In this document: one piece after another, positions 2,127 through 48,262 of the stretch | Layout of the letters: each line of letters starts with the position of its first letter | Position numbering within the stretch: the first letter of the stretch is position 1 | Source of the DNA: Candidatus Liptonbacteria bacterium | GTDB taxonomy: Bacteria > Patescibacteriota > Minisyncoccia > UBA6257 > 2-01-FULL-56-20 | Length of the DNA stretch: 64,000 nucleotides | Direction: 5' to 3' | Assembly: GCA_016186635.1 (NCBI GenBank) | Contig: JACPLI010000020.1 | Location: 3,548 to 67,547, forward strand | The notes under the pieces: generated by a model | Databases searched by the model: none | Seen by the model: only the letters and a program-made list of their open reading frames with translations | What the model was told of the DNA's origin: nothing | Translations under genes and position numbers: made by a program

Positions 2127-2903
2127 ATGGCTGACGAAACGAAATCGGCATACCCGCAGGCGCTCGGCGCCGAGCTGAATGATGCGGCGCGCGAGATGAT
2201 TGCCGCAGGCGTATTTTACGGGAAAAAGAAGAGCAAGACGCACCCGCGCATGAAGGCGTGGGTCTTGGCGAACCGCGGGGGCATTGAGATTATCAATTTG
2301 GCGAAAACGGAAGAAGAGCTTTCGCGCGCGGCGGAGTTTGTGAAGGGGAAGGCAAAAGCGGGAGAACTTTTTCTTTTTGTGGGTACCCAGCCGGCGGCGC
2401 AGGATGCGGTGCAATCGGTCGCCGCGGAGTTTAAGATGCCGTTCGTGGTGAACCGGTGGGTGGGAGGAACGCTCACCAATTTCAAAATGATTGCCCAGCG
2501 GGTGGAATACATGAAAAAGCTCCGGACGGGTCTTGCCACGGGGATGTTCGACAAGTACACGAAGAAAGAGCGCCTTGGAATTGAGCGGGAGCTTGGGCGC
2601 CTTATAGAACTTATGGCGGGGCTTGAAGCGCTCGCGCGCGTTCCAGACGCGCTTGTCGTCATTGACCCTGTCGTGCATGAAACGGCGGTGCGCGAAGCCC
2701 TCCAGCTGGGGATTCCGGTCATTGCGCTTGCCGATACCGATGCGGACCCCGACGCAGTGACGCGCATGGTCCCGGGAAATGCGAAATCGAAGAAAAGCAT
2801 CGAATGGTTTTTGGGGAGAGTGAAGGCGGCTGTTGCGGAGGGGAAGAGTGCGGTACAATCTACCGAAGGAGTAATCGCCAATAACGCGAATGGAGGCAAA
2901 TAA
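2127..2903 (+). CDS. rpsB: 30S ribosomal protein S2
   Basis: S2 signature VVNRWVGGTLTNFKMI. The last 12 codons (VIANNANGGK*) are encoded by a family-A palindromic repeat. Confidence 0.9.
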   Translation: MADETKSAYPQALGAELNDAAREMIAAGVFYGKKKSKTHPRMKAWVLANRGGIEIINLAKTEEELSRAAEFVKGKAKAGELFLFVGTQPAAQDAVQSVAAEFKMPFVVNRWVGGTLTNFKMIAQRVEYMKKLRTGLATGMFDKYTKKERLGIERELGRLIELMAGLEALARVPDALVVIDPVVHETAVREALQLGIPVIALADTDADPDAVTRMVPGNAKSKKSIEWFLGRVKAAVAEGKSAVQSTEGVIANNANGGK

Positions 2904-2912
2904 CGCGAATAA
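2867..2912. repeat. Family-A palindromic repeat (GGAGTAATCGCSAATAACGCGAATG core), copy 1
   Basis: ggagtaatcgccaataacgcgaatggaggcaaataacgcgaat. It overlaps the rpsB stop and the tsf start. Confidence 0.8.
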
Positions 2913-3348
2913 GGATGCAGTTCAAAAATTGAGGGAGGCGACGGGCGCGGGGGTGATGGAGTGCCACCGGGCGCTCAAGGACGCCGGCGGCGATTTTGCC
3001 AAGGCGGCGGCGCTTATCGGCGAGCAGGGACTTTCCAAGGTGGAAAAGCGCGCGGGGCGGGAAACCAGCGCGGGGTTGGTGCACGCGTACGTGCACGGCG
3101 AGCGTATCGGTGTCTTGCTCCACGTTTCCGCGGAGACCGATTTTGTGGTGCGTTCGGAGCCTTTCAAGGCGCTCGCGCACGAGCTTGCAATGCACATTGC
3201 CGCGGCGGCGCCGAAGGACATCGCGGAACTTCTCGGTCAGCCCTACATCCGCGACGAGAAGAAAACGGTGAACGACCTCATCGGCGAGGTGATTGCGAAG
3301 GTGGGGGAGAATATACAGGTGAAGGAGTTTTATAGGATAGAACTTTAA
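2890..3348 (+). CDS. tsf: Elongation factor Ts, short form
   Basis: UBA-like N-terminus LREATGAGVMECHRALKDAGGDFAKAAALI. The gene sits directly downstream of rpsB. The first 6 codons lie in the family-A repeat, so the true start is uncertain. Confidence 0.8.
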   Translation: MEANNANKDAVQKLREATGAGVMECHRALKDAGGDFAKAAALIGEQGLSKVEKRAGRETSAGLVHAYVHGERIGVLLHVSAETDFVVRSEPFKALAHELAMHIAAAAPKDIAELLGQPYIRDEKKTVNDLIGEVIAKVGENIQVKEFYRIEL

Positions 3349-3438
3349 AGGAGTAATCGCTAATAACGCGAATGAAGGCAAATAACGCAAATAGGATTCG
3401 CATTATTGAATCCAAATTCGCATTATTCGCGAATACTC
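3349..3438. repeat. Family-A palindromic repeat, full two-arm copy 2
   Basis: Left arm ggagtaatcgctaataacgcgaatgaaggcaaataacgc. Right arm, inverted, ggattcgcattattgaatccaaattcgcattattcgcgaatactcc. Confidence 0.85.
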
Positions 3439-3439
3439 C

Positions 3440-3802
3440 ATGTTAGAATTTGTCCTTGCAAACATCGCAATGCTCTCCGCGGGAGTGGCGCTTTTTCTCG
3501 TTGCGCACTCACTGCCGCGCGTGGGGGAAAGTGAAACGGAGCCGAAATGGTTTCTGGAGCGGTGGGTTACGCTGGAATTTCCCGAGAAACTCGACGGGGC
3601 ATTTAACAGCTTCGCGGGAAAGTTTTTGAGGAAGCTCCGCGTGGTTATACTGAAATTCGACAACGCGGTATCCGGGACACTGAAGCGCTTCAAGAGCGAG
3701 AATGGCAACGGGAAATCGCTTGACTTTAAAGAGATGATGGGGGATAAAGGGGGGGGCGAAGCGAAGGATGAGGATGAGGGCAAGCGAAAAAAATCCAAAT
3801 AA
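3440..3802 (+). CDS. Hypothetical small membrane protein with Lys/Glu/Gly-rich tail
   Basis: 120-aa ORF with an N-terminal hydrophobic helix. It is flanked by repeat elements. No recognisable domain. Confidence 0.35.
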   Translation: MLEFVLANIAMLSAGVALFLVAHSLPRVGESETEPKWFLERWVTLEFPEKLDGAFNSFAGKFLRKLRVVILKFDNAVSGTLKRFKSENGNGKSLDFKEMMGDKGGGEAKDEDEGKRKKSK

Positions 3803-3882: not shown

Positions 3883-3992
3883 GGAGTAATCGCTCGTACC
3901 GCGAATGAAGGCAAATCTGCCTGTCGGTAGGCAAATAACGCAAGTAGGATTCGCATTATTGAATCCAAATTCGCATTATTCGCGAATACTCC
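3883..3992. repeat. Family-A palindromic repeat copy 3 with nested family-D motif
   Basis: gaggagtaatcgctcgtaccgcgaatgaaggcaaa + tctgcctgtcggtaggca + aataacgcaagtaggattcgcattattgaatccaaattcgcattattcgcgaatactcc. Confidence 0.8.
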
Positions 3993-34447: not shown

Positions 34448-36559
34448 ATGCAAAAATTTGAACTCGCAAAAGAGTTGAAGCCAGCAGGTGATCAACCAAG
34501 CGCTATCGAGAAGCTTGTGGCGGGATTGAAGAGGGGATACCAGCATCAGACGCTTTTGGGAGTTACGGGGAGCGGAAAGACGTTTACTGTCGCGAACGTG
34601 ATTGCAAAGATACAGAAGCCGACGCTGGTGATCGCGCACAACAAGACGCTCGCGGCCCAGCTTACGAATGAATTCAGGGAGCTTTTCCCGAAGAACTCGG
34701 TAAATTATTTCGTGTCGTACTACGACTACTACCAGCCGGAGGCGTATATTCCATCGTCCGACACCTACATAGACAAAGAAGCGCTTATCAACGACGAGAT
34801 TGATAAACTGCGCCATGCGGCGACGACGGCGCTCCTCACGCGGCGGGACGTAATTGTGGTTGCATCCGTCTCATGTATCTACGGCTTGGGCGCGCCGGAG
34901 ACGTACGCGGAGAACATTTTCCGGTTCAAGGTTGGAGACAGGGTTGAGCGGAAGAATTTTGCGCGAAAGCTTGTTGAATTGCAATTCACGCGCACGAACA
35001 TAAATTTGAAGCGCGGTACGTTCCGCCTTCGTGGAGAGAATTGGGAAATAATGCCGCCGGACAGGGAAGTGATTTACATGCTCGAAGTGCGAAGTTCAAC
35101 TATCGCGGCGATATATGCAACAGACCCTGTAGTTGGGTTTCAGCCCGGCAAGACACCGCCAGTCGAGGAAGTCATCATTCCTCCGGCAAAACATTTCATT
35201 ACCGAAGCGGACGCGCGCGAGCGGGCAATCGGCTTGATTCAGGAGGAGCTCAGGGTGCAACTCAAGTATTTTGAGGAAAATAAGAAATTTCTCGAAGCCG
35301 AACGGCTCGAGCGCCGTACAAAGTTCGACATTGCGATGATACGGGAGATCGGCTACTGCCACGGCATCGAGAACTATTCGCGGCACCTTTCGGGCCGCGC
35401 GGCAGGTACTCCTCCTGAAACTCTTCTCGACTATTTTATGCAGGGTTCGAAATCGCATTCGGATGCAAAGGTTCGACCTTTAGGGGGTTCTCAAGGTCGA
35501 ACCTTGGAAGAACCCGATTTCCTGACCATAATTGACGAATCCCACATCACCGTGCCGCAGATTCAGGGGATGTATCATGGCGACGCGTCGCGGAAGAAAA
35601 CGCTCGTCGAATACGGGTTCCGTCTTCCCTCCGCCGCGGACAACCGGCCATTGAAATTTGCGGAGTTTGAAAAGCGCATAGGGCAGACGATATATACATC
35701 CGCCACGCCGGGACCGTATGAGTTGAAGAAGAGCGGGGTAAAAGCTCGACCTTTAAGGGATTCTCAAGGTCGAGCCTTGGGAGAAACCGGAGGTCAAGTT
35801 GTGGAGCAAATTATCCGCCCTACTGGCCTCGTAGACCCCAAAATCACCATCCGGCCCGCGCGCGGGCAGGTGGACGACCTGATTCCTCGGATCGAGGAGC
35901 GCGTTGCCGCAAAGGAGCGGGTGCTCGTGACGACGCTCACCAAGAAAATGGCGGAGGATTTATCCGCATATCTCGAAGGAAAGAAAATGAAAGTGGCGTA
36001 TCTCCACAGCGACGTGAAAACGCTTGACCGTATCCGCATTCTTACGAACTTGCGGAAGGGTTCGGAGGCGAAGGGCGGATTCGACGTGCTCGTGGGAGTG
36101 AATCTCCTGCGCGAAGGGCTCGACTTGCCCGAAGTGTCGCTCGTCGCGATTCTTGATGCGGACAAGGAGGGCTTTCTCCGGAGCGAGACCTCGCTCATCC
36201 AGACCATCGGGCGCGCGGCGCGAAACGTGCGCGGAGAGGTTTTGATGTATGCCGACCACATCACGGGTTCGATTAAGCGCGCGGCGGGGGAGACCGAGCG
36301 GCGCCGAAAACTTCAACTTGCCTACAATAAAGAACATGGCATTACGCCGAAGACGGTGATGAAGAAAATCACGAGTATCTTGCCGGAAGAGGTGTTGAAG
36401 CTCGAAATGAAGCCGATTCCGAAATCCAAATCCGCAATAGAGAAGCTTATCCGCGAGAAGGAGCGGGAGATGCGCGAAGCGGCGAAAGAGCTGAACTTTG
36501 AATTAGCGGCGATTTTACGAGATGAGATAAAGGTTCTTAAGAGGAGTAATCGCGAATAG
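34448..36559 (+). CDS. uvrB: Excinuclease ABC subunit B
   Basis: GVTGSGKTF, DESHVT-like IDESHITVPQ, QTIYTSATPG, VVEQIIRPTGLVDP, and a C-terminal UVR motif. Two in-frame family-C insertions. The stop codon lies inside a family-A repeat (KRSNRE*). Confidence 0.95.
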   Translation: MQKFELAKELKPAGDQPSAIEKLVAGLKRGYQHQTLLGVTGSGKTFTVANVIAKIQKPTLVIAHNKTLAAQLTNEFRELFPKNSVNYFVSYYDYYQPEAYIPSSDTYIDKEALINDEIDKLRHAATTALLTRRDVIVVASVSCIYGLGAPETYAENIFRFKVGDRVERKNFARKLVELQFTRTNINLKRGTFRLRGENWEIMPPDREVIYMLEVRSSTIAAIYATDPVVGFQPGKTPPVEEVIIPPAKHFITEADARERAIGLIQEELRVQLKYFEENKKFLEAERLERRTKFDIAMIREIGYCHGIENYSRHLSGRAAGTPPETLLDYFMQGSKSHSDAKVRPLGGSQGRTLEEPDFLTIIDESHITVPQIQGMYHGDASRKKTLVEYGFRLPSAADNRPLKFAEFEKRIGQTIYTSATPGPYELKKSGVKARPLRDSQGRALGETGGQVVEQIIRPTGLVDPKITIRPARGQVDDLIPRIEERVAAKERVLVTTLTKKMAEDLSAYLEGKKMKVAYLHSDVKTLDRIRILTNLRKGSEAKGGFDVLVGVNLLREGLDLPEVSLVAILDADKEGFLRSETSLIQTIGRAARNVRGEVLMYADHITGSIKRAAGETERRRKLQLAYNKEHGITPKTVMKKITSILPEEVLKLEMKPIPKSKSAIEKLIREKEREMREAAKELNFELAAILRDEIKVLKRSNRE
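35467..35507. repeat. Family-C double palindrome copy 4, in-frame inside uvrB
   Basis: aaaggttcgacctttagggggttctcaaggtcgaaccttgg encodes KVRPLGGSQGRTLE, which is extra relative to canonical UvrB between LxDY and IDESH. Confidence 0.85.
35740..35779. repeat. Family-C double palindrome copy 5, in-frame inside uvrB
   Basis: aaagctcgacctttaagggattctcaaggtcgagccttgg encodes KARPLRDSQGRALG, inserted between YELKKSG and GQVVEQIIRPTGL. Confidence 0.85.
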
Positions 36560-36590
36560 CGCGAATTTGGATTTAATAACGCGAATAAAT
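36541..36590. repeat. Family-A repeat (half-element) copy 4 at the uvrB stop
   Basis: gaggagtaatcgcgaatagcgcgaatttggatttaataacgcgaataaa. Confidence 0.75.
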
Positions 36591-37037: not shown

Positions 37038-39725
37038 ATGCATAACAAGATAATCATTCGCGGCGCCCGCGAGCATAATTTGAAGAACATCACGCTCGAG
37101 ATTCCGCGCGATAAAATGACTGTGTTCACCGGGCTTTCCGGCTCGGGGAAGTCGAGCATGGCGTTCGACACGATTTTCGCCGAGGGACAGCGCCGCTACA
37201 TCGAGTCGCTCTCCGCGTATGCGCGGCAGTTTTTGGGGCGGCTCGATAAACCGGACGTGGATGATATTGAGGGGCTCTCGCCCGCAATCTCGATTGATCA
37301 GAAAAGCCATTCCCACAATCCGCGTTCGACGGTGGCAACCGTGACCGAGATTTATGACTATCTTCGCGTGCTCTTCGCCCGCGCGGGGAAGCCCCACTGC
37401 CCAAAGTGCGGCAGGGAAATCCAGAAGCTTACGAACGAGGAGATTGTGGATGTCGCCGTCCAAATCTCGAATGAGAATAAGTCAAAGAAAAACATCGTGA
37501 TTCTTGCGCCGGTCGTGCGTGGACGGAAAGGGGAATACTATCAGCTCCTCTACGACTTCTTGAACGCCGGGTTCTCCGAGGTGCGCGTGGACGGGGTTTA
37601 CAAAACGCTCCGCGAGCGAGTGGAATTGAGCAGATATAAAGCGCACTCGATTGATTTGGTAGTGGACCGCATTCCGGCGGGAATTGATTTTTCCGACAAA
37701 GATGCGCGGCTTCGACTTGCGGAGGCGGTTGAGATGGCCTTGAAATACGGGAATGACGTGGTGACGGTTGTGACCGACAAGGAAGTCTCGCTCTCCGCGA
37801 AGTTTACCTGTCCGAACGACGGGTTCTCGTTTCCCGAAATCGAGCCGCGGCTTTTCTCGTTCAACAGCCCGTACGGCGCGTGCCCCCAATGCCACGGGCT
37901 GGGCACGGAAGATGTGTGGTCCGAAAAGATTTGCCTGGTGTGCGCGGGGAAGCGTTTGAAAGAAGAAAGTTTGGGGGTATTGATTAACGGTAAAAGCATA
38001 GCTTCGATCGCGGCGCTATCGATTGGGGATGCGTATATGTTTTTTGAAAAATGGGAAGCATCAATAGCGGGGAAGTCGGACTTCCCGAGGAAGTCCGACT
38101 TCCAAAAATTGGCCTTGAAGGAGATCGCGGAAGCCCCGCTCCGCGAAATAAAAAACCGTCTGAAATTCATGATTGACGTGGGGCTCGAGTATCTCACGCT
38201 CGAACGCCGGGCGGGGACGCTCTCCGGCGGGGAAGCGCAACGAATCCGGCTTGCCTCGCAAGTGGGTTCTCGGCTCGTGGGCACGCTCTACATTTTGGAC
38301 GAGCCGACCATCGGGCTTCACCAAAAAGATAATGCGAAGCTCATCAAGACGCTTCACGACCTGCGTGATTTGGGGAACACGATTGTGGTCGTCGAGCACG
38401 ACGAGGAGACAATTCGGGAGAGCGATTATCTCGTAGACTTTGGTCCCGGCGCGGGTATTCATGGGGGGAAAGTGGTGGCGCAGGGGGCGATTCCAGAGCT
38501 GTTGGGACCAGTGTCATTCCCGCGCACGCGGGAATCCAAGGTATCACAGGGAACTCTGGATTCCCGTTTTCACGGGAATGACAGAAAAGTTCTTACTCGG
38601 CAAAGTCAGGTTTTGAAAGATTCTCTCACTCTTCAGTATTTGCATGGCAAGAAGTTTATTGAAATCCCGAAAGAGCGCCGCGGCGTCGGCAAGGGGACGA
38701 AGCTTATTTCCATCAAAGGCGCGAAAGAAAATAATCTCAAGAACATCGACGTGGCGATTCCCGTGGGGCGGCTTACGGCGGTGACCGGCGTTTCGGGTTC
38801 GGGGAAGTCGAGTTTGGTCTACGACGTGCTCTATAAGACGCTCGCGAATAAGTGGCACGGGGCGAGTTACAAGGAGGGCGCGCATAGCGGAATTTTTGGA
38901 TTAGAGCACATAAATCGAGTGATCAACATTGACCAGTCGCCGATTGGGCGCACGCCGCGCTCGAATCCCGCGACGTATGTGGGTGCGTGGACGTTTGTTA
39001 GAGACCTCTTCGCGGCGACCCCCGACGCAAAAGTGCGCGGCTATAAGCCGGGGCGGTTCAGCTTCAATGTGCCGGGCGGCCGGTGCGAGAACTGCGAAGG
39101 GCACGGCACGCTCGCCATCGAGATGCATTTCCTCCCCACGGTCTACGTGCAGTGCGACATCTGCAAAGGCAAGCGCTTCGACCGAGAGACGCTTGCGGTG
39201 GAGTACCGATCCTCCGCTAAAGCTATGGACGGCAGGCAAAGCAAAAATATATACGAGGTTTTGAAACTCACGATTGAAGAGGCGGTGAAGTTTTTTGATG
39301 AAATCCCGTGGCTCGCGGACCGATTGAAGATTCTGGACGAAGTGGGGCTCGGATACCTCGAACTCGGGCAGTCCGCGACGACCCTCTCCGGCGGAGAAGC
39401 CCAGCGCGTGAAGCTTGCCTCGGAGCTGGGGAAGCGCGACACCCGCCGGACGCTCTACTTGCTCGACGAACCCACGACGGGGCTTCACTTTGCGGACGTG
39501 GACAAATTGCTCCAAGTTTTACAGCGCCTTGTGGGCAGAGGGAATACGGTCGTCGTCATCGAGCATAACTTGGATGTCATCAAAACCGCGGACTGGGTGA
39601 TTGACCTTGGCCCCGAAGGAGGAGAGAAGGGCGGCGAAATTGTCGCCGCGGGCACGCCCGAAGAAATCGCGCGAAAGAAAGGGAGCTTTACGGGGGAGTA
39701 TCTGCGGAGGGTTCTCCAAGGTTAA
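37038..39725 (+). CDS. uvrA: Excinuclease ABC subunit A
   Basis: [18 protein letters not shown], two ABC ATPase modules (GLSGSGKSS / [17 protein letters not shown] x2), and Zn-finger Cys motifs. In-frame family-B and family-E insertions. The stop lies inside a family-C repeat. Confidence 0.95.
38070..38108. repeat. Family-B palindrome copy 4, in-frame inside uvrA
   Basis: gggaagtcggacttcccgaggaagtccgacttcc encodes [12 protein letters not shown]. Confidence 0.85.
38513..38583. repeat. Family-E MITE-like element copy 3, in-frame inside uvrA
   Basis: gtcattcccgcgcacgcgggaatccaaggtatcacagggaactctggattcccgttttcacgggaatgac encodes [24 protein letters not shown]. Confidence 0.85.
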
Positions 39726-39778: not shown

Positions 39779-40447
39779 TTACTTCAACCCCAAGATATTT
39801 TTAGCAATGGCCGGCACCTCGCGGCGGAAATATGCCTTTATTTCTCCCCACGTCGCCTTAAAGAAAAGGGTTGGCATAGGGTCGTCTTCCGCCTCCGTAA
39901 AATAAGTTAAGCTTTTGATGAAGTGCGGGAAGTTCAGATTTTTTGTTGGATAGTGTTCTTGCACGCGAGAGAGAATGTCGCAAAGCGGCTCCCGATTTTT
40001 GACATACCAGTACAGGTCAACAAAATCGCGCTTGCGGCAACGCTGACTGATTGCAATAATCTTCATCACCGCAATATCTTCCGGAGGAAGGATTTTAACG
40101 GTGCCGAAACGCGTGAATGTTCCTGAAGCGACGAAAAAGGGATAGGCGATAAAACTCGCTTTTGCTCCCGCATACTCTCCGTATAATGTGCCGGCGGTTG
40201 CCGATGTTGTGTTCCAATCGCCAGTTTTGAGAAGTACCCCTTCGAGCGCAAGCCGGTCAAACTCGGCTTCCGGCGTGAAAAAATCCAAATCAACGGACTG
40301 GCGATGTCCGACTTGCAGCGCGAGCGCCGTGCCCCCCGCGAGATACCAGCCGCCTCCGCGAAAAAGCGGCATCTTTGAGAATGTTTCAAGCGCGTGCTTG
40401 GTGTCCGCAGGCAATGCCTCAAAATGGAATCCATCAACTTGTTGCAT
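39779..40447 (-). CDS. AbiEii/AbiGii-family nucleotidyltransferase toxin (type IV TA)
   Basis: LFRGGGWYLAGGTALALQVGHRQSVDLDFF matches the DUF1814 signature. Start taken at internal M42 of the track ORF (±3 nt). Confidence 0.65.
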   Translation of the reverse strand: MQQVDGFHFEALPADTKHALETFSKMPLFRGGGWYLAGGTALALQVGHRQSVDLDFFTPEAEFDRLALEGVLLKTGDWNTTSATAGTLYGEYAGAKASFIAYPFFVASGTFTRFGTVKILPPEDIAVMKIIAISQRCRKRDFVDLYWYVKNREPLCDILSRVQEHYPTKNLNFPHFIKSLTYFTEAEDDPMPTLFFKATWGEIKAYFRREVPAIAKNILGLK

Positions 40448-40464
40448 GGTGTGCGGTACCGTTA

Positions 40465-40740
40465 TCAAGCAAACACAAGTTTCCACAATGCTCGCGATTG
40501 CGGCTGCAGCACGCGAGAGGTGAGCACTACCTTCTTGATGAGCGACTTGGGATAATACGCCGCCATCCATCGCAACTCGTCGTCTCTTCCGAAATCCAGA
40601 ATCCGCTCAATCACATAGACCGCGTGTTTCTTCGGGTCAATCGTCTTCGGGTCAACGTCCCAAAAAAGCGATTGCCGAAATCGCATTGCGGGCGTGGCGC
40701 TTTTTTTCGCGACCTTCATGTGTCGCCTATATTTTAGCAT
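40465..40740 (-). CDS. Putative cognate antitoxin / partner of the AbiEii-like toxin (91 aa)
   Basis: Lies immediately upstream on the same strand. Basic N-terminus. No motif could be named. Confidence 0.35.
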   Translation of the reverse strand: MLKYRRHMKVAKKSATPAMRFRQSLFWDVDPKTIDPKKHAVYVIERILDFGRDDELRWMAAYYPKSLIKKVVLTSRVLQPQSRALWKLVFA

Positions 40741-41300: not shown

Positions 41301-41698
41301 AGTTTTGAAAGCGTGTAATCAAGGAAATCCCTTCGCAGTTCAAACAATATTTCTGCATCATCGTAGTTCCGGAGCGCATATAAATATGCCTCGTTAAAAA
41401 GCGATTGACTTCGCTCATACAGCACCACCGCATTCGTCACGATCTGCTTCGCGAGAAGCGGGGGCGCAGTTTTCAGATTCACGAGCGACACCTTGTCGTT
41501 CCGAAAAACCTCCGTCAGGTCGAAATTCAAAAGCACCTCATCGTCAAACGAGAGTTTTTTGTCCGCGAGATATGCCACGTCCACATCGCTTTCCTTGTGC
41601 GTCTGCCCTGTTGCCTGCGAGCCGAAAAGCACGACCAACGAAAGGCCGTATTTCTCGGCAAGCGCGGCGATATGGGGTTGTGTTGATGCAATATTCAT
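41297..41698 (-). CDS. mntA: MntA-like minimal nucleotidyltransferase antitoxin
   Basis: GSQATGQTHKESDVDVAY matches the NTase fold GS...D.D motif. Confidence 0.8.
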   Translation of the reverse strand: MNIASTQPHIAALAEKYGLSLVVLFGSQATGQTHKESDVDVAYLADKKLSFDDEVLLNFDLTEVFRNDKVSLVNLKTAPPLLAKQIVTNAVVLYERSQSLFNEAYLYALRNYDDAEILFELRRDFLDYTLSKL

Positions 41699-42330
41699 GT
41701 GATTTCATCGTACCATGTTTCTCTAAATGCTCCAATAACCCTTATTTTATAATGGTTTCCGACTTGTCCTGAGCTTGCCGAAGGAGAGACGATTGACAAG
41801 ATAGCATAAAGTATGCTATATTTACACCGTTATTTTGCAGTTCTTTCACACAGCAAAATCGTTTGAACCCCGTTGTTGTACGAGAATAGCACCATGCTAG
41901 TCACTAAGTCCTAATGGCTAAGTTCTAGTGGCTGTCATTGAGCTATTCTCGTGTGAGCGTAGCCAGTATCTTCGCCTCCTGTCTCTTTTGAGAGAATGGA
42001 CGAACGGTATCGCGCTACCGCAACAGCGCATCTCCATTTCCGATGACCTCAGTGGACCGCTGGGTTCGAAACTCGGGCAATGCCCGAGTAATGGTGCAGT
42101 GGGATGATCAAACTGGAAGGGTTCCAGCACTCATCCTTTCCACCCATTACCATGGGGATGGTGGCGGGCAGGATGCCCGCTTCGTGCGGATTCAGATTGG
42201 AAAACCCCTCTATTTTTCGCCCGCAATGTAAAAATGTGCGGGCACGCCGAAAGGCAATGGAGACGACTGAATCCTGTAGATTCGGTCAGGTGGAGCCCTG
42301 AGCTACGTCGAAGGGCTCCACCAATCTCTA

Positions 42331-42439
42331 CTGTTCTCGGTTCCAACGAGGGAGTTACATTTCTTCCTAAAAATAAAAAATTGAAAACATTGATGGGGCG
42401 AAAGAGTCAAAAACTCAATCGCCCCGCTCAATTGAGTCC
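42331..42439 (+). repeat. Cassette-array direct repeat R1 (~110 nt, ends in a conserved stem-loop plus CTCAATTGAG palindrome)
   Basis: ctgttctcggttccaacgagggag...ttcctaaaaa...ggggcga-loop-tcgccccgctcaattgagtcc. Confidence 0.75.
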
Positions 42440-42667
42440 ATAAGCGAAAGTTTGTGGATTCATAGAGCAAGCAGTTCTTTCAAATCAATAAAATTGGAAT
42501 CTGGAAGAATTCGTTGCTGCACTTGTAGGAAGCGCAAAGATTATCAAAATAGTTTTTGCGCTTCCTATGAGGAACGCAGGCGATATCGGCGGGCCGCAAA
42601 CATGCCGATAAACTTCACGCCCACTGGAAAGGCGCTATGCCAAGTCCTACGGGCACGAGGAGATAGT

Positions 42668-43429
42668 ATGGAAAATAACCAGCAGAATCAGTCGTATCGG
42701 GTATTCACCATCAATTCCGGGAGCATCACCGAAGGCGCGCCGGTTCAGATGGTGAAAATCGCGCAAGGGACAGTTGAGATTTTCGCGGTCACGGTCGGGG
42801 AGAGTGGCCGTGGGCGCCAACTCGGTATGGTCCCGGTGGACCGGCCGCCGCACACGGCTTGCTCGAACCGGAATCGAGAAATGTCCGGCGAAAAGTGCGA
42901 CAAATGCGGTGTCGCGCTTGAGAATGGCAAGCACCCGGACAAAGGAGAGGTGCCGGGGCGGCTCATGTTCGCGGAGTTGGGGCAGACAAAGTCCGGGAAA
43001 CCCAAACTTTTCTCGAAACCGTCGGCGACTTCGGATGAAAAGGTCATCGCTGTTTTCAGTACGATGATTGGTTTCCGGGGCGGCAATTCGCATACCGGAG
43101 ACCGCGCGGGGTGGACTTGTTCGTGCGGTGAGTCTGCTGACACCGCCAGGCCGGAAAAGTGCCCCAAGTGCGGTGGGACTGAAGGTCTGAAGAATAAATT
43201 CGCGCAGTTTCCTGGTGAGATTATCTGCCAGGGTACCATCGCCGAAGGAGACGCGGGGCGGATGGGGAGCGGCGAGCAGCTCGTCGCGTTCATGCCGAAG
43301 GATGTGGTTTTCCGAACATCCTACTCGGGGCGGCTCTATGGGAAGCCGGGTGCCCACTATTACAAGTGGACTGGCGAGAAATTCCTCGCCGCCACGTGGG
43401 AAGATCGGTCGGCGGCGGATCTGTTCTAG
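42668..43429 (+). CDS. Hypothetical Cys-rich protein with two Zn-ribbon-like CxxC pairs (253 aa)
   Basis: CDKCG...CSCGESADTARPEKCPKCGG. RBS aggagatagtATG. Start reset to M73 of the track ORF. Confidence 0.5.
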   Translation: MENNQQNQSYRVFTINSGSITEGAPVQMVKIAQGTVEIFAVTVGESGRGRQLGMVPVDRPPHTACSNRNREMSGEKCDKCGVALENGKHPDKGEVPGRLMFAELGQTKSGKPKLFSKPSATSDEKVIAVFSTMIGFRGGNSHTGDRAGWTCSCGESADTARPEKCPKCGGTEGLKNKFAQFPGEIICQGTIAEGDAGRMGSGEQLVAFMPKDVVFRTSYSGRLYGKPGAHYYKWTGEKFLAATWEDRSAADLF

Positions 43430-43523
43430 GTTCCAATCGGGAGAAGGAAAACTTCCTAAAAACAAACCAAAAAACATTTAGCGGGCGATTGGGAAAACCT
43501 GATCGCCCCGCTCAATTGAGTCC
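43421..43523 (+). repeat. Cassette-array direct repeat R2
   Basis: ctgttctaggttccaatcgggag...ttcctaaaaa...gggcgat-loop-atcgccccgctcaattgagtcc. Confidence 0.75.
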
Positions 43524-43583
43524 GTCGCGCCGTGAGTACGGAATGCGGTGGCCTCAACAGAGTGGTTGCTACTTTACAACTTT

Positions 43584-43916
43584 ATGAAAAGAATAATCGT
43601 CCAAAAGGCGACGGATTTCTGGCCAACCTACGACCCTAAGAAATGGGTTGCCTTCGAGGAGGGGAAAAACCCATCGGAGGGGAGTACGGGCAGTACTTTT
43701 GGGTTGGCGGCCATGGCGCTCGCTGCGAACGTGGCCGATGAGAGCGAAATACCGCCGATGCAGGTACGCATCACGGTAACGCTCAATCGGCCAAGGGATG
43801 CGGTACTCATGGTTTGGAAGTTTTTCCTCGCTTTTCTGAAGCTGCTATTTGGGGAAAAGCAGATTCGGATAAGTATGGATCCCTTGTCGATGTTTGTCGA
43901 CAAGGTACAGCGTTGA
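43584..43916 (+). CDS. Hypothetical protein (110 aa)
   Basis: ORF immediately downstream of R2. No recognisable domain. Confidence 0.4.
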   Translation: MKRIIVQKATDFWPTYDPKKWVAFEEGKNPSEGSTGSTFGLAAMALAANVADESEIPPMQVRITVTLNRPRDAVLMVWKFFLAFLKLLFGEKQIRISMDPLSMFVDKVQR

Positions 43917-43925
43917 AATTTTTGC

Positions 43926-43967
43926 GGGCGAGTGGTTCTATTCCATTCGCCCCGCTCAATTGAGTCC
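43926..43967 (+). repeat. Cassette-array direct repeat R3 (3' module only)
   Basis: gggcgagtggttctattccattcgccccgctcaattgagtcc. Confidence 0.7.
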
Positions 43968-44038
43968 GAGAGTGAAAGATTCTCGCGAGCTGAACAGAGC
44001 GATTTAAAAATAAAAACGTGAAAGGAGGTGAAAAGCAA

Positions 44039-44302
44039 ATGCTGAAAATCCCGAAAAACGGGGCGGAAATCCAAACGGTCAAAGGGATACAATATCTCGT
44101 TGCCCGGCTGGATGCGCAGAAAACCTGCGCGGACTACCTGAACGCGCTTCGGAGAGGAGAGACCGTGGTTGTGCCGCTTTCAAAAAGGACACATCTCACG
44201 GGGCTTCTTAAGAGGGAATCCATTTTTACTCGGCAAAAGACACTTGTTGCCGGGAAATGGATCTCTTTCACTCCGTGTGAAGAAAGGGAGTTCAAGCCTT
44301 AA
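44039..44302 (+). CDS. Hypothetical protein (87 aa)
   Basis: Strong RBS aaggaggtg 8 nt upstream of the ATG. A terminator follows. Confidence 0.45.
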   Translation: MLKIPKNGAEIQTVKGIQYLVARLDAQKTCADYLNALRRGETVVVPLSKRTHLTGLLKRESIFTRQKTLVAGKWISFTPCEEREFKP

Positions 44303-44362
44303 CTGCGGCTTTGGCACGCGGGGCAGAGCGACTGCCTGGCAACGGAATTGTCGCAAAAATTT

Positions 44363-44395
44363 GGAGGTGCAAAAACGCACCTCCTTTTGCTTTTT
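44363..44395 (+). terminator. Rho-independent terminator
   Basis: ggaggtgc-aaaaac-gcacctcc followed by ttttgcttttta. Confidence 0.8.
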
Positions 44396-44420
44396 ATACG
44401 ACGGGGTATACTCCAAGCGC

Positions 44421-45761
44421 ATGACTGATTTTGACCTGCCTGCTGGCAGGCAGGGAAAATTAAAAGACAAAGTGATACATGATTTTCCGGAGACGCCGGG
44501 GGTGTATACGATGCGGGGTGCAACAAAAAAGGTGCTTTACATCGGCAAAGCGGGAAATTTGCGGCGGCGGGTATCAAGCTATTTTCTACGCGCACACGAC
44601 GCGCGAATCGAGCGACTGATGCAGGAAGTGCGGGAGATTAGCTACGAGGAAACGGATACCGCGCTTGAGGCGCTCATTCTCGAGTCAAAACTCATTAAGG
44701 AAAAGCATCCGGTTTATAACATCCGCGAGCAGGATGACAAAAGTTTTCTCTATGTGGCGATTACGCGCGAGGCGTTCCCGCGGGTGCTCCTCGTGAGAGG
44801 AAAAGATTTCAATGCGGGAAGGATTAGCCTTCTGAAGGAGGCTAAGCCTTCCAAAGCATTCGGGCCATTTACCTCCGGCACGAGTATCCGCGAGGCGCTA
44901 CGGATTTTGAGAAGGATATTTCCGTGGAATACGCATAGGTTAGAAGGTGGAAAGGTGGAAAGGTTAGAAGCGGAGAAGCGGCCATGCTTCGATTACGAAG
45001 TGGGCTTGTGCCCGGGGACGTGTATCGGGGAGATAGATAAAAAAGAGTATCGCAAAAATATACACCGCCTCATAGACGTTTTTGAGGGAAAGAAGAAACG
45101 AGTGTTACTCGGGCTGGAGCGCGAAATGAAGAAAGCGAGTAAAGCGTTGGAATTTGAGAACGCCGCAAAACTGCGGAAACAGATTTTCGCGCTGAAGCAC
45201 ATACAGGATGTGGCGTTACTGAATCAAGATGCCCCAAGGTTTAACCTTGAGGATTCGAAGGTTAAACCTTCGATACGGATTGAAGGATATGACATCTCGA
45301 ACATTTCCGGGACTTCGGCGGTGGGTGCGATGGTAGTTTTTCTAAACGGGGAGCCGGCGAAAAGCGAGTATCGGAAATTTAAGATTTGCACGGTTGCGCA
45401 ATCCGATGATATCGGGATGCTCGAAGAGGTACTGCGAAGGAGGTTTAGGAGACATGGGGCGGAGGATGTTAAGGTTCAACCTTTCGGCACATCAAGGTTG
45501 AACCTTTGGGCGATGCCGAATCTTATTTTGGTTGACGGCGGGAGGGGACAAGTGAACGCGGCGCGGGAGGTGCTTGCAGAGGCGGAGCTCCGAATCCCGC
45601 TCGTGGGCATTGCGAAGGGACCGGAACGGAAAAGGAATGATGTCATCGGCAGAGTTCCAGTGGGGGTCTCGCTCGCCACGCTCATCAGAGTCCGCGACGA
45701 GGCACACCGGTTTGCGATTCGGTATCACAGAAAACTCCGAAGAACCAGGGCGTTTGAGTGA
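44421..45761 (+). CDS. uvrC: Excinuclease ABC subunit C, short form lacking the C-terminal HhH domain
   Basis: GIY-YIG N-terminus PGVYTM...VLYIGKAGNLRRRVSSYF, UVR motif, RNase H-like endonuclease domain, and EAHRFAIRYHR near the end. Three in-frame repeat insertions. Confidence 0.9.
   Translation: MTDFDLPAGRQGKLKDKVIHDFPETPGVYTMRGATKKVLYIGKAGNLRRRVSSYFLRAHDARIERLMQEVREISYEETDTALEALILESKLIKEKHPVYNIREQDDKSFLYVAITREAFPRVLLVRGKDFNAGRISLLKEAKPSKAFGPFTSGTSIREALRILRRIFPWNTHRLEGGKVERLEAEKRPCFDYEVGLCPGTCIGEIDKKEYRKNIHRLIDVFEGKKKRVLLGLEREMKKASKALEFENAAKLRKQIFALKHIQDVALLNQDAPRFNLEDSKVKPSIRIEGYDISNISGTSAVGAMVVFLNGEPAKSEYRKFKICTVAQSDDIGMLEEVLRRRFRRHGAEDVKVQPFGTSRLNLWAMPNLILVDGGRGQVNAAREVLAEAELRIPLVGIAKGPERKRNDVIGRVPVGVSLATLIRVRDEAHRFAIRYHRKLRRTRAFE
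44435..44453. repeat. Family-D palindrome in the uvrC N-terminus
   Basis: cctgcctgctggcaggcagg encodes LPAGRQG. Confidence 0.8.
45236..45272. repeat. Family-C double palindrome copy 7, in-frame inside uvrC
   Basis: caaggtttaaccttgaggattcgaaggttaaacctt encodes PRFNLEDSKVKPS. Confidence 0.85.
45471..45509. repeat. Family-C double palindrome copy 8, in-frame inside uvrC
   Basis: aaggttcaacctttcggcacatcaaggttgaacctttgg encodes VKVQPFGTSRLNLW. Confidence 0.85.
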
Positions 45762-46427: not shown

Positions 46428-46519
46428 AGGAGTATTCGCGCCGTGCCTGCCGGCAGGCAGGAATAATGCTAATATAGATTCAATAATGCGAATCCATTCG
46501 CGTTATTGGCGATTACTCC
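46428..46519. repeat. Family-A repeat copy 5 with nested family-D palindrome
   Basis: aggagtattcgcgccgtgcctgccggcaggcaggaataatgctaatatagattcaataatgcgaatccattcgcgttattggcgattactcc. The right arm supplies MAITP at the FAD-oxidase start. Confidence 0.8.
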
Positions 46520-48170
46520 TCTTATGCTCGCTGACGAACTCCGGAAAATAATCAAGGGCGACGCGGAAGCGGACGACACGACGCTTGAGAAATACAGCCG
46601 CGACTTTTCGATTTTCAAGGTGGTGCCGGAGGTGGTGGTGTTCCCGAGGGACACCGAAGACGTGAAAGCGCTGGTGAAGTTTGCGAGCGCGGCGCGGAAA
46701 AGAGGAAGGAAAATCTCATTGACGGGGCGCGCGGCGGGCACGGATATGACGGGCGGGCCGCTTACGGAATCCGTGGTGGTGGACTTCACGCGGCACATGA
46801 ATCGGATTAAGGAAATCGGCAAGGATTATGTGGTGGTGGAGCCGGGAGTGTACTATCGGGACCTCGAACCGGAGCTTGCGCGCCGGGGGCTCATGTATCC
46901 GGCGTACCCCGCATCGAAGGATTACTGCGCCATCGGCGGCATGGTGATGAACAATGCGGGAGGCGAGAAGACGCTTCTCTACGGCAAGACCGAGCAGTAT
47001 GTGGCGCAAATAAAAATGGTGCTCGCGGATGGGGAGGAGCATGTGATAAAGCCCATGTCGCGCGGCGCGCTTGAGGAATGCGCGGGAAAGCGAGATTTCG
47101 AGTGTGCGGCATGGAGAAAGCTCCGGCGGATGCTCGAGCGGCGCGCGAACGCGATTGCGGCGGCGCGCCCGGACACGTCAAAGAATTCCTCCGGTTATTC
47201 GCTCTGGAACGTGTGGGACGGGAATACCTTTGACCCGGTGAAACTTTTCGTGGGCTCGCAAGGGACGCTTGGGCTCATGACAGAGGTAAAATTGCGGCTC
47301 GTGCCGAAGCCGGCGCACACCCAGCTTGTAGTGCTTTTCCTGCGCGATATCGAGCGCATCGGCGACCTCGTGAACGAGATTCTCAAAGTGAAACCGGAGA
47401 GCATTGAGTCCTACGACGACAAGACGCTCGGCGTGGTGCTCCGTTATCTTCCCAGTTTCATTTGGTCCATGAAAGGGGATTTCCTGAAGCTTGCATGGAG
47501 TTTCCTTCCAGAGGTGGGGATGATGCTTCGCGGCGGGGTTCCGAAGATGATTCTCTTGGTGTCGCTCACTGCCGATACAGAACAGGAACTTCATGCGCGC
47601 ACCATCAAGCTGGTGCACATGGTGCGGCGGGAGTTCCGGCTCCCTGTCCGCGCGGTGCGCGATAAGGCGGAAGAGGAAAAGTATTGGACGATTCGGCGCC
47701 AGAGCTTTGCGCTCCTTCATGGGCACATCAAGGACCGCGACACCGCGCCCTTCATTGATGACATCGCGGTACAGCCGCGGCACCTCCCTGAATTTTTGCC
47801 GAAGCTCAATGCGATTCTTGAGCGCTATAAAGACAAGCTTATCTATACGATTGCCGGGCACCCGGGGGACGGAAACTTCCATATTATCCCGCTCATGGAT
47901 TTGAAGAATCCAAAAGTGCGCGCGCTCATTCCCGCCATTTCCGATGAGGTATATGCGCTTGTGCTGCGCTATCGCGGCTCTATCACTGCCGAGCACAACG
48001 ACGGCATCATCCGCACGCCCTACGTAAAGGAGATGTATGGCAGGGAGGTGTACGCGCTCTTTGAGGAGGTGAAGCACACTTTCGACCCGCAGGGCGTTTT
48101 CAACCCTGGAAAGAAAGTGAGAGGGACGCTCAAATATGCGCTCGAGCATATCAGGAGTAATCGCGAATAA
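46506..48170 (+). CDS. FAD-linked oxidase (GlcD / D-lactate dehydrogenase-like)
   Basis: FAD-binding PCMH pattern with RGLMYPAYPASKDYCAIGGMVMNNAGGEK. The C-terminus RSNRE* is encoded by a family-A repeat. Confidence 0.85.
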   Translation: MAITPLMLADELRKIIKGDAEADDTTLEKYSRDFSIFKVVPEVVVFPRDTEDVKALVKFASAARKRGRKISLTGRAAGTDMTGGPLTESVVVDFTRHMNRIKEIGKDYVVVEPGVYYRDLEPELARRGLMYPAYPASKDYCAIGGMVMNNAGGEKTLLYGKTEQYVAQIKMVLADGEEHVIKPMSRGALEECAGKRDFECAAWRKLRRMLERRANAIAAARPDTSKNSSGYSLWNVWDGNTFDPVKLFVGSQGTLGLMTEVKLRLVPKPAHTQLVVLFLRDIERIGDLVNEILKVKPESIESYDDKTLGVVLRYLPSFIWSMKGDFLKLAWSFLPEVGMMLRGGVPKMILLVSLTADTEQELHARTIKLVHMVRREFRLPVRAVRDKAEEEKYWTIRRQSFALLHGHIKDRDTAPFIDDIAVQPRHLPEFLPKLNAILERYKDKLIYTIAGHPGDGNFHIIPLMDLKNPKVRALIPAISDEVYALVLRYRGSITAEHNDGIIRTPYVKEMYGREVYALFEEVKHTFDPQGVFNPGKKVRGTLKYALEHIRSNRE

Positions 48171-48262
48171 TGCGAATGGGGGCAAATAATGCGAATGAAG
48201 AAGCATAAGAAGAAATAATTTGCATTATTGAAATTACAATTTGCATTATTCGCGATTACTCC
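48153..48262. repeat. Family-A repeat copy 6 (full two-arm)
   Basis: aggagtaatcgcgaataatgcgaatgggggcaaataatgcgaatg...tttgcattattgaaattacaatttgcattattcgcgattactccc. Confidence 0.85.

Follow-up and report, generated by a model that had tools for sequence, protein, structure and literature searches.

A repeated two-hairpin element between the small genes of a Candidatus Liptonbacteria locus, a possible intercistronic RNA processing module

The 64,000-nt stretch of DNA analysed here (hereafter the window; positions 3,548 to 67,547 of contig JACPLI010000020.1, from a Candidatus Liptonbacteria bacterium) carries, between uvrA and uvrC, an array of small co-oriented genes in which a short element, here called R, recurs three times. 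The simplest reading makes R a module that acts at the level of RNA and generates ends within a polycistronic transcript, because its sense strand is predicted to fold, its stems show compensatory change, the layout should let transcription read through, and R is interchangeable with promoters and hammerhead ribozymes before the same leader. To the fuller form of this reading, in which R would be an intercistronic RNA punctuation or processing module of the sense strand whose repetition also drives gene shuffling, we give a probability of roughly 45%.

The R array between uvrA and uvrC

The order along the locus is uvrA, an AbiEii/DUF6922 pair, a HepT/MNT pair (both minus strand), a promoter, a leader with ORF0, R1-ORF1, R2-ORF2, R3-ORF3, an element named S, a terminator and uvrC. 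Loci from other genomes are given L numbers; L006, L012, L013 and L015 belong to one relative with ~80% DNA identity, and L018 to a third lineage, reached via homologues of ORF3. The features of the array are as follows.

41793..41822, + strand: sigma-70-type promoter, TTGACA-N18-TATATT with TG, 11/12 matches, conserved in the relative (L006)
41838..41870, + strand: leader motif L-a, GCAGTTCTTTCAcaCAGCAAAATcgtTTGAAcc, ~8 nt past the predicted transcription start, also in L006 and L018
41880..41952, + strand: long leader hairpin (inverted repeat), base conserved, top variable and different in L006
42043..42231, + strand: possible ORF0, 62 aa, coding status unproven, a variable gene slot
42266..42322, + strand: two hairpins (42266-42286, 42289-42322) just before R1, their stems differing from L006 yet still pairing
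42331..42471, + strand: R1, with 5' module, hairpin hpB 42395-42425 and imperfect hairpin P2 42426-42468
42472..42667, + strand: ORF1 5' leader, with L-b motif CAGTTCTTTCAAATC, hairpin 42526-42567 and TTCACGCCCAC...GGGCACGAGGAG directly before the ATG (six-lineage alignment)
42668..43429, + strand: ORF1, 253 aa, all-beta, two optional zinc-ribbon inserts
43421..43565, + strand: R2, first 9 nt being the end of ORF1, hpB 43483-43508, P2 43509-43564
43584..43916, + strand: ORF2, 110 aa, without Shine-Dalgarno sequence, a strict orphan
43913..44002, + strand: R3, partial, without 5' module, hpB 43926-43952, P2 43953-44001
44039..44302, + strand: ORF3, 87 aa, strong Shine-Dalgarno sequence, three homologues (67-69% identity) in other gene contexts
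44300..44360, + strand: S element, a nearly invariant structured 3' module beginning at the ORF3 stop codon
44363..44395, + strand: intrinsic terminator, GGAGGTGC...GCACCTCC and then a T run; no other terminator of the array is convincing

The exact 21-mer TCGCCCCGCTCAATTGAGTCC occurs three times in the window, on the + strand (42419-42439, 43503-43523 and 43947-43967), where 0 occurrences are expected by chance; with up to 3 mismatches allowed, the 64 kb yielded no further site, and 100 shuffles gave none. The similarity of R1 and R2 extends over ~90 nt 5' of the 21-mer (73% identity over a 109-nt alignment of 42331-42439 with 43421-43523), whereas R3 (43913-43967 in this comparison) has only the stem-loop and the 21-mer in common with them. 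The three direct repeats reported in the initial annotation, R1, R2 and a partial R3, are thereby borne out, as is their GGGCGA-loop-TCGCCC stem-loop, which is found in 3/3 copies with loops that differ and pair internally. The element runs further 3' than described there, to ~42471, 43565 and 44002, giving a length of ~80-140 nt per copy. Likewise, the statement that each module begins at the preceding stop codon is literally true only for R2; R1 opens with a relic of coding sequence, and the R3 hairpin lies 10 nt past the ORF2 stop. The genes start at ATG 42668 (not TTG 42452), ATG 43584 and ATG 44039, that is, 229, 61 and 72 nt past the 21-mer.

Further copies before other cargo genes, which the initial annotation had proposed to look for, did not appear: a sequence profile derived from the copies gave no diverged relatives of R in the rest of the 64 kb, nor in related loci totalling ~40 kb, and exact-match scans of public genome and metagenome collections returned R only at this locus in the one relative, otherwise chance matches. 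The latter (L001, L011, L014, L016 and L017) were rejected because they lie inside GC-rich sequence and have no stem; nothing similar to R was seen in a phage DNA collection or in viral contigs. The genes that adjoin R do differ among lineages (see below). Overall, R amounts to seven full copies in three related lineages, and its three copies in 64 kb, all within 1.7 kb, do not have the distribution of a dispersed repetitive extragenic palindromic (REP) or miniature inverted-repeat transposable element (MITE) family. A MITE with inverted ends CTGTT...AACAG was also considered and rejected, since its supposed left end is part of the coding sequence of ORF1 and the L018 copy lacks it, and a diversity-generating retroelement was dismissed because the differences between R1 and R2 are not adenine-specific and there is no reverse transcriptase.

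The promoter at 41793-41822 is the sole strong + strand promoter upstream of the array, and no promoter-like site was found at 42331-42471, 43421-43565 or 43913-44002; hexamers sought by eye and a promoter scan gave nothing conserved that would make a sigma-70 promoter inside R. We infer that the array forms one transcription unit, with a single strong upstream promoter, none at R and one real terminator at the end. The ~650-nt stretch before R1, initially taken to be free of ORFs, holds this near-consensus promoter, a conserved leader and the possible 62-aa ORF at 42043-42231, for which no protein-family match was obtained. This leader region folds with z = -8.1, and its motif L is duplicated in the window, at 41838 and, after R1, at 42472. 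A tmRNA (transfer-messenger RNA)- or tRNA-like end before R1 (...GGGCTCCACCA) was tried and discarded: ARAGORN and Rfam found none, the CCA lies within a plain hairpin, and the stem covaries with L006.

For ORF1, a hypothetical protein with 100% identity exists in a Candidatus Liptonbacteria metagenome-assembled genome (MAG). ORF2 is also annotated in the MAG and found only itself among 1.84 billion cluster representatives; it may be a very young gene, or no gene.

Fold and conservation of R

Each copy is made of two abutting hairpins, hpB and then P2, with no spacer between them. In the full copies they are preceded, directly after the upstream stop codon, by a 5' module of GGTTCCAA, a small hairpin A and an A-rich single-stranded run that lies immediately 5' of hpB; R1 has the relic CTGTTCTCG before these same parts. 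The base of hpB, GGGCGA/UCGCCC, is conserved, and its top is variable but internally paired. In P2, CGCUC-AA-UUGAGUCC (in DNA, CGCTC-AA-TTGAGTCC) pairs with GGAyUCAA-CA-GAGCG, contributed by the downstream box TCAACAGAGCG, around a variable hairpin C. The result, predicted in all copies, is an irregular helix of roughly 20 bp with a lower stem, a 2x2 or 3x2 internal loop, an upper stem and a variable hairpin of 13 to ~50 nt; P2 measures 43-57 nt in the three window copies and up to ~75 nt in one copy of the relative. What had appeared to be an independent palindrome, CTCAATTGAG (perfect over 10 bp, with invariant flanks, in every full copy), is the 5' strand of P2, and the 3' box of P2 is a degenerate copy of the same palindrome, as is required for pairing with it.

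The minimum free energy structure is this two-hairpin fold in 7/7 full copies of the three lineages, and shuffle z-scores, computed for five of these, lie between -2.5 and -7.4. Under RNA energy parameters, folding favours the + strand over the - strand by 6.5-11.6 kcal/mol in 5/8 copies, neither strand in 2/8 and the - strand by 2.6 kcal/mol in 1/8. The advantage of the + strand stems from the wobble pairs, all of which fall on it, including a U-G wobble in the hpB of the relative's R1. The hpB of the L018 copy b carries two double-compensatory changes (GGGCGA/TCGCCC vs GGAGGA/TCCTCC), and the hpB top and hairpin C differ wholly in sequence between copies with pairing always retained. These changes and ever-pairing tops support the idea, already voiced from the sequence, of selection on structure. 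Covariance models of Rfam 15 (4227 families, E up to 10) gave no family that fits R, the twister, twister-sister, pistol, hatchet, HDV-like and hairpin ribozymes included, only chance-level hits to unrelated families (E at least 1.9).

The hairpin hpB is followed by CGCTCAATTGAG and has no T/U tract, and no terminator was called there; therefore, transcription should read through. A terminator on the minus strand was rejected as well, because the T run starts 6-8 nt after the stem and there are no minus-strand genes that would need one.

Given the palindrome, R could instead be a DNA-level regulatory cassette, in which CTCAATTGAG serves as an operator or as part of a non-sigma-70 promoter, and each gene is separately initiated and co-regulated, as in the promoter/stem-loop (PeSL) cassettes of T4-type phages, which are likewise stem-loop plus promoter units at shuffling junctions (PMC2839356, PMC4122927). 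The perfect 10-bp palindrome with invariant flanks in every full copy would fit such a role, as would the sigma-70 promoters that occupy R positions in other lineages. Nevertheless, no copy has a -35/-10 match, hpB without its U tract is no terminator, the spacing from the palindrome to the 3' box is not fixed (13 to ~50 nt), and the compensatory changes and sense-strand wobbles indicate pairing, not duplex recognition. The palindrome is not fixed relative to a promoter either, being half-deleted in the promoter-bearing L018 copy c1. In addition, the leader of L025 is preceded by a promoter with a hammerhead between the two, so the promoter alone does not fill the role, and the relative's R2, which stands before a terminator, would drive only a ~60-nt RNA. 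Hence, the shared operator offered initially as one explanation of the repeats is not supported, and we consider a DNA-level cassette quite unlikely.

Gene content beside R and hammerheads in related operons

The relative keeps promoter, leader, R1, ORF1 and R2; its ORF0 slot holds an unrelated 217-aa ORF with the same start position, and after R2 come a terminator and an AbiE-like pair where the window has ORF2-R3-ORF3. In L018, a full R lies between a gene C and the ORF3 homologue, an R1-type copy (hpB GGAGGA/UCCUCC) precedes the same L-a leader that is preceded by the sigma-70 promoter in the window, and copy c1 has a sigma-70 promoter (TTGACA-N17-TATACT) in place of hpB and half the palindrome, before the hairpin C of window R2. 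The gene before R is ORF1 in the window and the relative and gene C in L018; R is followed by ORF2 or ORF3 in the window, by the terminator in the relative and by the ORF3 homologue in L018. The homology blocks between the lineages break at the 21-mer and just past the 3' box. As different genes flank R in three related lineages and homology breaks at the conserved boxes, gene content beside R varies, in agreement with the cassette-like variability suspected from the window. An "empty site" of the ORF0 slot in L018 was dropped, the three-way alignment being too noisy.

The AbiEii/DUF6922 pair follows uvrA in the window (39779-40740) and lies between R2 and uvrC in the relative (L013 268-1129); therefore, this module has moved inside the uvrA-uvrC interval. 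In the relative it is flanked by palindromes, ccatggaacaattctatagaattgttccatgg and a similar one at 1150-1180.

The array itself bears traces of how its copies arose. The first 9 nt of R2, CTGTTCTAG, are the last codons of ORF1, and (D/E/V)(L/I/V/C/A)F or a similar ending closes 40/40 of the ORF1-family proteins aligned, those of genomes without R among them. It follows from this family-wide C-terminus that CTGTTCTAG is ORF1 coding sequence and that CTGTTCTCG at the start of R1 is a relic of a duplicated ORF1 3' end. The relic reads CTGTTTGAG in the relative, and the L018 copy after gene C has none. Relic and duplicated leader motif L together indicate that the array was made by local duplication. 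It might be asked whether R is simply a functionless ORF1 3' untranslated region, locally duplicated twice and kept alike by gene conversion: R1 opens with a mutated copy of the last three ORF1 codons, the copies are confined to this 2-kb stretch, and motif L (41838 and 42472) is likewise duplicated. Yet the 21-mer is identical at 21/21 positions in the three paralogous copies and in two other lineages, against flanks of ~73% (0.75^21, ~0.002 per pair), the stems stay paired through compensatory change, and the full R of L018 follows another gene without an ORF1 relic. In the copies compared, constraint on the core is evident from its 21/21 identity, as opposed to ~73% for the flanks, and absence of function is the least probable of the explanations we weighed.

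The variable gene content could also mean that R, or P2 within it, is a structure-specific recombination site like integron attC, at which cassettes would be inserted and excised by a recombinase encoded elsewhere in the genome. P2 is indeed an imperfect hairpin whose inverted boxes are conserved, whose small central spacer is unpaired and whose end varies, and, as in integrase-less attC clusters, the genes are co-oriented behind one promoter and their content differs between relatives, with junctions at the conserved boxes; in the L018 copy c1, homology breaks in the middle of the palindrome, after the promoter. This resemblance is generic: the R boxes are CGCTC/GAGCG and TTGAGTCC/GGAyTCAA, with no RYYYAAC/GTTRRRY cores, no GTTRRRY at the 3' end and no R/L box consensus. 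Among the 27 window ORFs scanned with Pfam there is no tyrosine recombinase, integrase or other recombinase; the array is bordered by uvrA, toxin-antitoxin modules and uvrC. Moreover, attC recombines via its bottom strand, whereas in R the coding (+) strand appears to fold better in most copies, as far as the comparison given above, made with RNA parameters, can indicate this for DNA. Unlike a promoterless cassette, the central gene ORF1 is conserved and syntenic with a long leader of its own, the relic in R1 points to segmental duplication, the copies sit at one locus with no others in two public scans, and the hammerheads at equivalent positions described below would be left unaccounted for. 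Altogether, an attC-like site, another explanation put forward initially, appears very unlikely to us.

A different line of evidence comes from the ORF1 family, which has at least 678 members, mostly in Patescibacteria, and is recurrently associated with hammerhead ribozymes. Its invariant motifs are GRGR, TKAGKPK, GFRGGNSHTGDR and AQGDAGRMGSGEQ; ORF1 has no Pfam, NCBIfam or PDB relative, and its AlphaFold2 model is all-beta (pLDDT, the predicted local distance difference test, 94.7). A function could not be assigned from this model, as Foldseek found no match in the PDB at E <0.1. The genes of the family have a conserved 190-230-nt 5' leader, aligned for six lineages, which starts with G.TCTTT..A and contains a hairpin GGTAGC...GCTACT or GGAAGCGC...GCGCTTCC, then TTCACGCCCAC...ACGGGCACGA right before the Shine-Dalgarno sequence. 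The leader has no match in Rfam and is a candidate cis-regulatory RNA. The leader sites, and what stands around them, are listed below.

Conserved leader: window 42472-42667
Conserved leader: L021 999-1189
Conserved leader: L022 1193-1367
Conserved leader: L025 2317-2500
Conserved leader: L026 2240-2500
Directly upstream of the leader, window and relative: R1
Directly upstream of the leader, L021 944-998: type III hammerhead, 41.5 bits, E 1.7e-6
Directly upstream of the leader, L025 2262-2316: type III hammerhead, 41.4 bits, E 3.8e-6, promoter 90 nt further upstream
Upstream of a shorter ORF1 leader and abutting it, L002 3988-4042: type III hammerhead, 43 bits, E 1.3e-6
Directly upstream of the leader, L022: sigma-70 promoter and hairpin
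Directly upstream of the leader, L026: a different structured element, R', present three times before three successive genes
After ORF1, L022 2223-2279: hammerhead
After ORF1, L023 2518-2574: hammerhead

In L022 and L023 the hammerhead (45 bits, E 1.7e-7) lies between ORF1 and the following gene, 60 nt past the stop codon, which is the position of R2 in the window. All listed hammerheads were found in small-gene operons of Parcubacteria and have canonical cores with GUC or UUC cleavage sites. Their presence at the same positions in related operons points to an RNA-level role of R. Conversely, R was found in none of the loci of distant ORF1 homologues (L002, L004, L021-L026), and no hammerhead was found in 41500-44500 at E up to 10 or, with a core regular expression, anywhere in the window. 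The hammerheads of these operons score below threshold and would escape default Rfam annotation; a second L002 site at ~1545-1600, a CUGAAGAG variant, was seen by regular expression only.

As hammerheads of four other lineages share the positions of R relative to the ORF1 leader and stop, it would be possible that R itself is a new class of self-cleaving ribozyme, which replaces hammerheads at ORF1-family operon boundaries in Patescibacteria and cuts co-transcriptionally without protein. The invariant nucleotides (CUCAAUUGAG and the 3' box) beside freely varying stems are compatible with this, as is the absence of any fitting Rfam family. On the other hand, the internal loop of P2 differs between copies, being either AA/CA or AAU/UA, most of the invariant bases lie within predicted helices and not at junctions, and the spread is very narrow for a ribozyme, with seven copies in three lineages. 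Threading of R onto a hammerhead core (it has no CUGANGA or GAAA) or a hairpin-ribozyme core fails, and so a degenerate hammerhead or hairpin ribozyme was rejected. Thus, self-cleavage of R seems to us unlikely.

The element R' of L026 (~1003-1064, 2160-2277 and 3400-3500, before three successive genes that include the ORF1 homologue) has a hairpin GGAGCG-UGACUGCCAA-CGCUCC, with covariation to GGAAUG/CAUUCC; after it come UCCCAACACCCGAG, a variable hairpin and GGUUCAGGAAGUUGGAA. Rfam gave no match to R' at E up to 10. Its strings ACUGCCAA and UCCCAA are reminiscent of twister ribozymes; R' may be a ribozyme candidate, and may separately be another new self-cleaving class.

R as a candidate RNA processing module

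On present evidence R is not an attC site nor an operator, and we consider it best filed as a lineage-restricted intercistronic RNA punctuation element. According to the mechanism we propose, the array would yield a single RNA that starts from the promoter at 41793 and stops at the terminator (44363-44395), and in which each R folds, as predicted, into hpB and P2 with the A-rich single-stranded run 5' of hpB. This RNA would be cut at or beside the module, the likeliest agent being either a host double-strand-specific enzyme of the RNase III type with P2 as its target, or a single-strand endonuclease that attacks the A-rich run. After the cut, hpB could serve as a protective 3' hairpin of the upstream mRNA, and P2 with hairpin C as a structured 5' end of the downstream one, such that each small gene would gain mRNA ends of its own without its own promoter or terminator. 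At the DNA level, the recurrence of R within ~2 kb would provide a substrate for homologous recombination, by which genes may be swapped, duplicated or lost; the breakpoints are seen in the lineage comparison, and recombination is the mechanism we suppose behind them.

Several observations weigh against processing at R. P2 has an invariant 5' strand opposite a drifting 3' strand, which suggests sequence-specific recognition beyond pairing, such as binding by a protein or use as a DNA site. Covariation is thin, as only three closely related lineages have R, and the lower P2 stem hardly varies. The L018 copy c1 keeps the box CAGAGCGG though its pairing partner CGCTC is gone. The R2 of the relative lies immediately before the terminator, and what a processing site would do at that point is not obvious. 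With 41-45 bits, the hammerheads stay 3.5-7 bits under the Rfam gathering cut-off of 48.5, and the ORF1 loci L004, L024 and L026 have no hammerhead.

Among known systems, early-gene RNase III sites of phage T7 are irregular hairpins of about two turns with an internal loop, which lie between the cistrons of one transcript and resemble each other in sequence; cutting leaves a hairpin at the 3' end of the upstream mRNA. A ~20-bp irregular duplex in a polycistronic transcript, as is characteristic of RNase III sites, is offered by the predicted P2 in the presumed array RNA. Unlike the T7 sites, R belongs to a bacterial chromosome, and has the additional abutting hpB and a strictly invariant 5' strand. 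A second parallel is provided by the clustered hammerheads of prophage-like operons, which stand around single genes whose identity is not constant and which cut the polycistronic RNA (Perreault et al. 2011, PMC3088659). Like them, R repeats between co-oriented small genes of changing identity, and type III hammerheads sit at the positions of R around ORF1-family genes in L002, L021, L022/L023 and L025. Clustered hammerheads are thought to cut a long transcript into gene-length mRNAs, and by analogy R may do likewise; unlike them, R has no CUGANGA/GAAA core or Rfam hammerhead match and consists of two side-by-side hairpins, not of a three-way junction.

The PeSL cassettes combine a strong sigma-70-like promoter with an effective terminator stem-loop (PMC2839356, PMC4122927). 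R is, like them, a short conserved composite motif which flanks small, mostly unknown genes of a variable region and forms an exchange point between unrelated sequences, located at insertion, deletion and replacement junctions between close relatives; unlike them, it has neither the promoter nor the terminator hairpin with a U run. Shuffling at R as a by-product of repeated homologous sequence would match what was shown for PeSLs (PMC2839356, PMC4122927).

Other repeated elements lie in and around the array. The S element (TAACTGCGGCTTyGGCACGCGGGGCAGAGCGACTGCCTGGCAACrGAAyyGTCGCA) is found at 44300-44360 of the window, at 714-775 and 2882-2940 of L018 and at 918-975 of L020. Its start coincides with the ORF3 stop codon and, in L018, also with that of an unrelated gene B; it is ~94% identical between lineages whose ORF3 proteins are ~68% identical, and its inner stem covaries (GGCAG/CTGCC vs GGAGG/CCTCC). 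It is followed by a terminator or, in L018, by an R-type copy. None of its Rfam hits was significant, the best being alpha_tmRNA with 15.2 bits (gathering 50; E 0.085). A near-identical palindrome, CCTGCCTGCTGGCAGGCAGG, occurs at 44435-44455, just upstream of uvrC, and at 46441-46461, ~2 kb downstream after the next gene. The DNA-repair genes contain short in-frame palindromic insertions, e.g., ggaagtcggacttcccgaggaagtccgacttcc, in uvrA (38072-38107), uvrC (45237-45272 and 45471-45505) and the relative's uvrC (L013 1439-1475), the one in uvrA being 92-94% identical to one in the relative's uvrC; they resemble palindromic elements that insert into coding sequence. Finally, the real REP/MITE-like family of this genome, unrelated to R, is a dispersed intergenic repeat of ~95-115 nt with inverted ends GGAGTAATCGCGAATAACGCGAATG ... 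CATTATTCGCGATTACTCC and internal AATAACGCGAAT / ATTCGCATTATT sub-repeats, with at least 6 sites in the window (2866-2910, 3348-3442, 3930-3992, 36543-36587 (-), 46461-46510 (-) and 48150-48262) and one in the relative (L013 5888-5990).

We herein show that one conserved leader is served interchangeably by a promoter, a hammerhead or one of two structured elements, a natural experiment which would mark R, and R' of L026, as end-generating RNA modules. To our knowledge, gene expression in bacteria of the candidate phyla radiation, with their tiny genomes, is almost undescribed. If a host RNase does cut R, this would be the first intercistronic processing signal described in the phylum and a ready-made insulator part. 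New ribozyme classes were found by searching conserved RNAs near ribozyme-associated genes (PMC6154101); if R self-cleaves instead, it would be a further class, found by guilt by association as twister-sister, pistol and hatchet were. Our data show, too, that the cassette-like turnover of genes in a variable region of a chromosome can be accounted for by repeated regulatory RNA modules instead of a dedicated recombinase.

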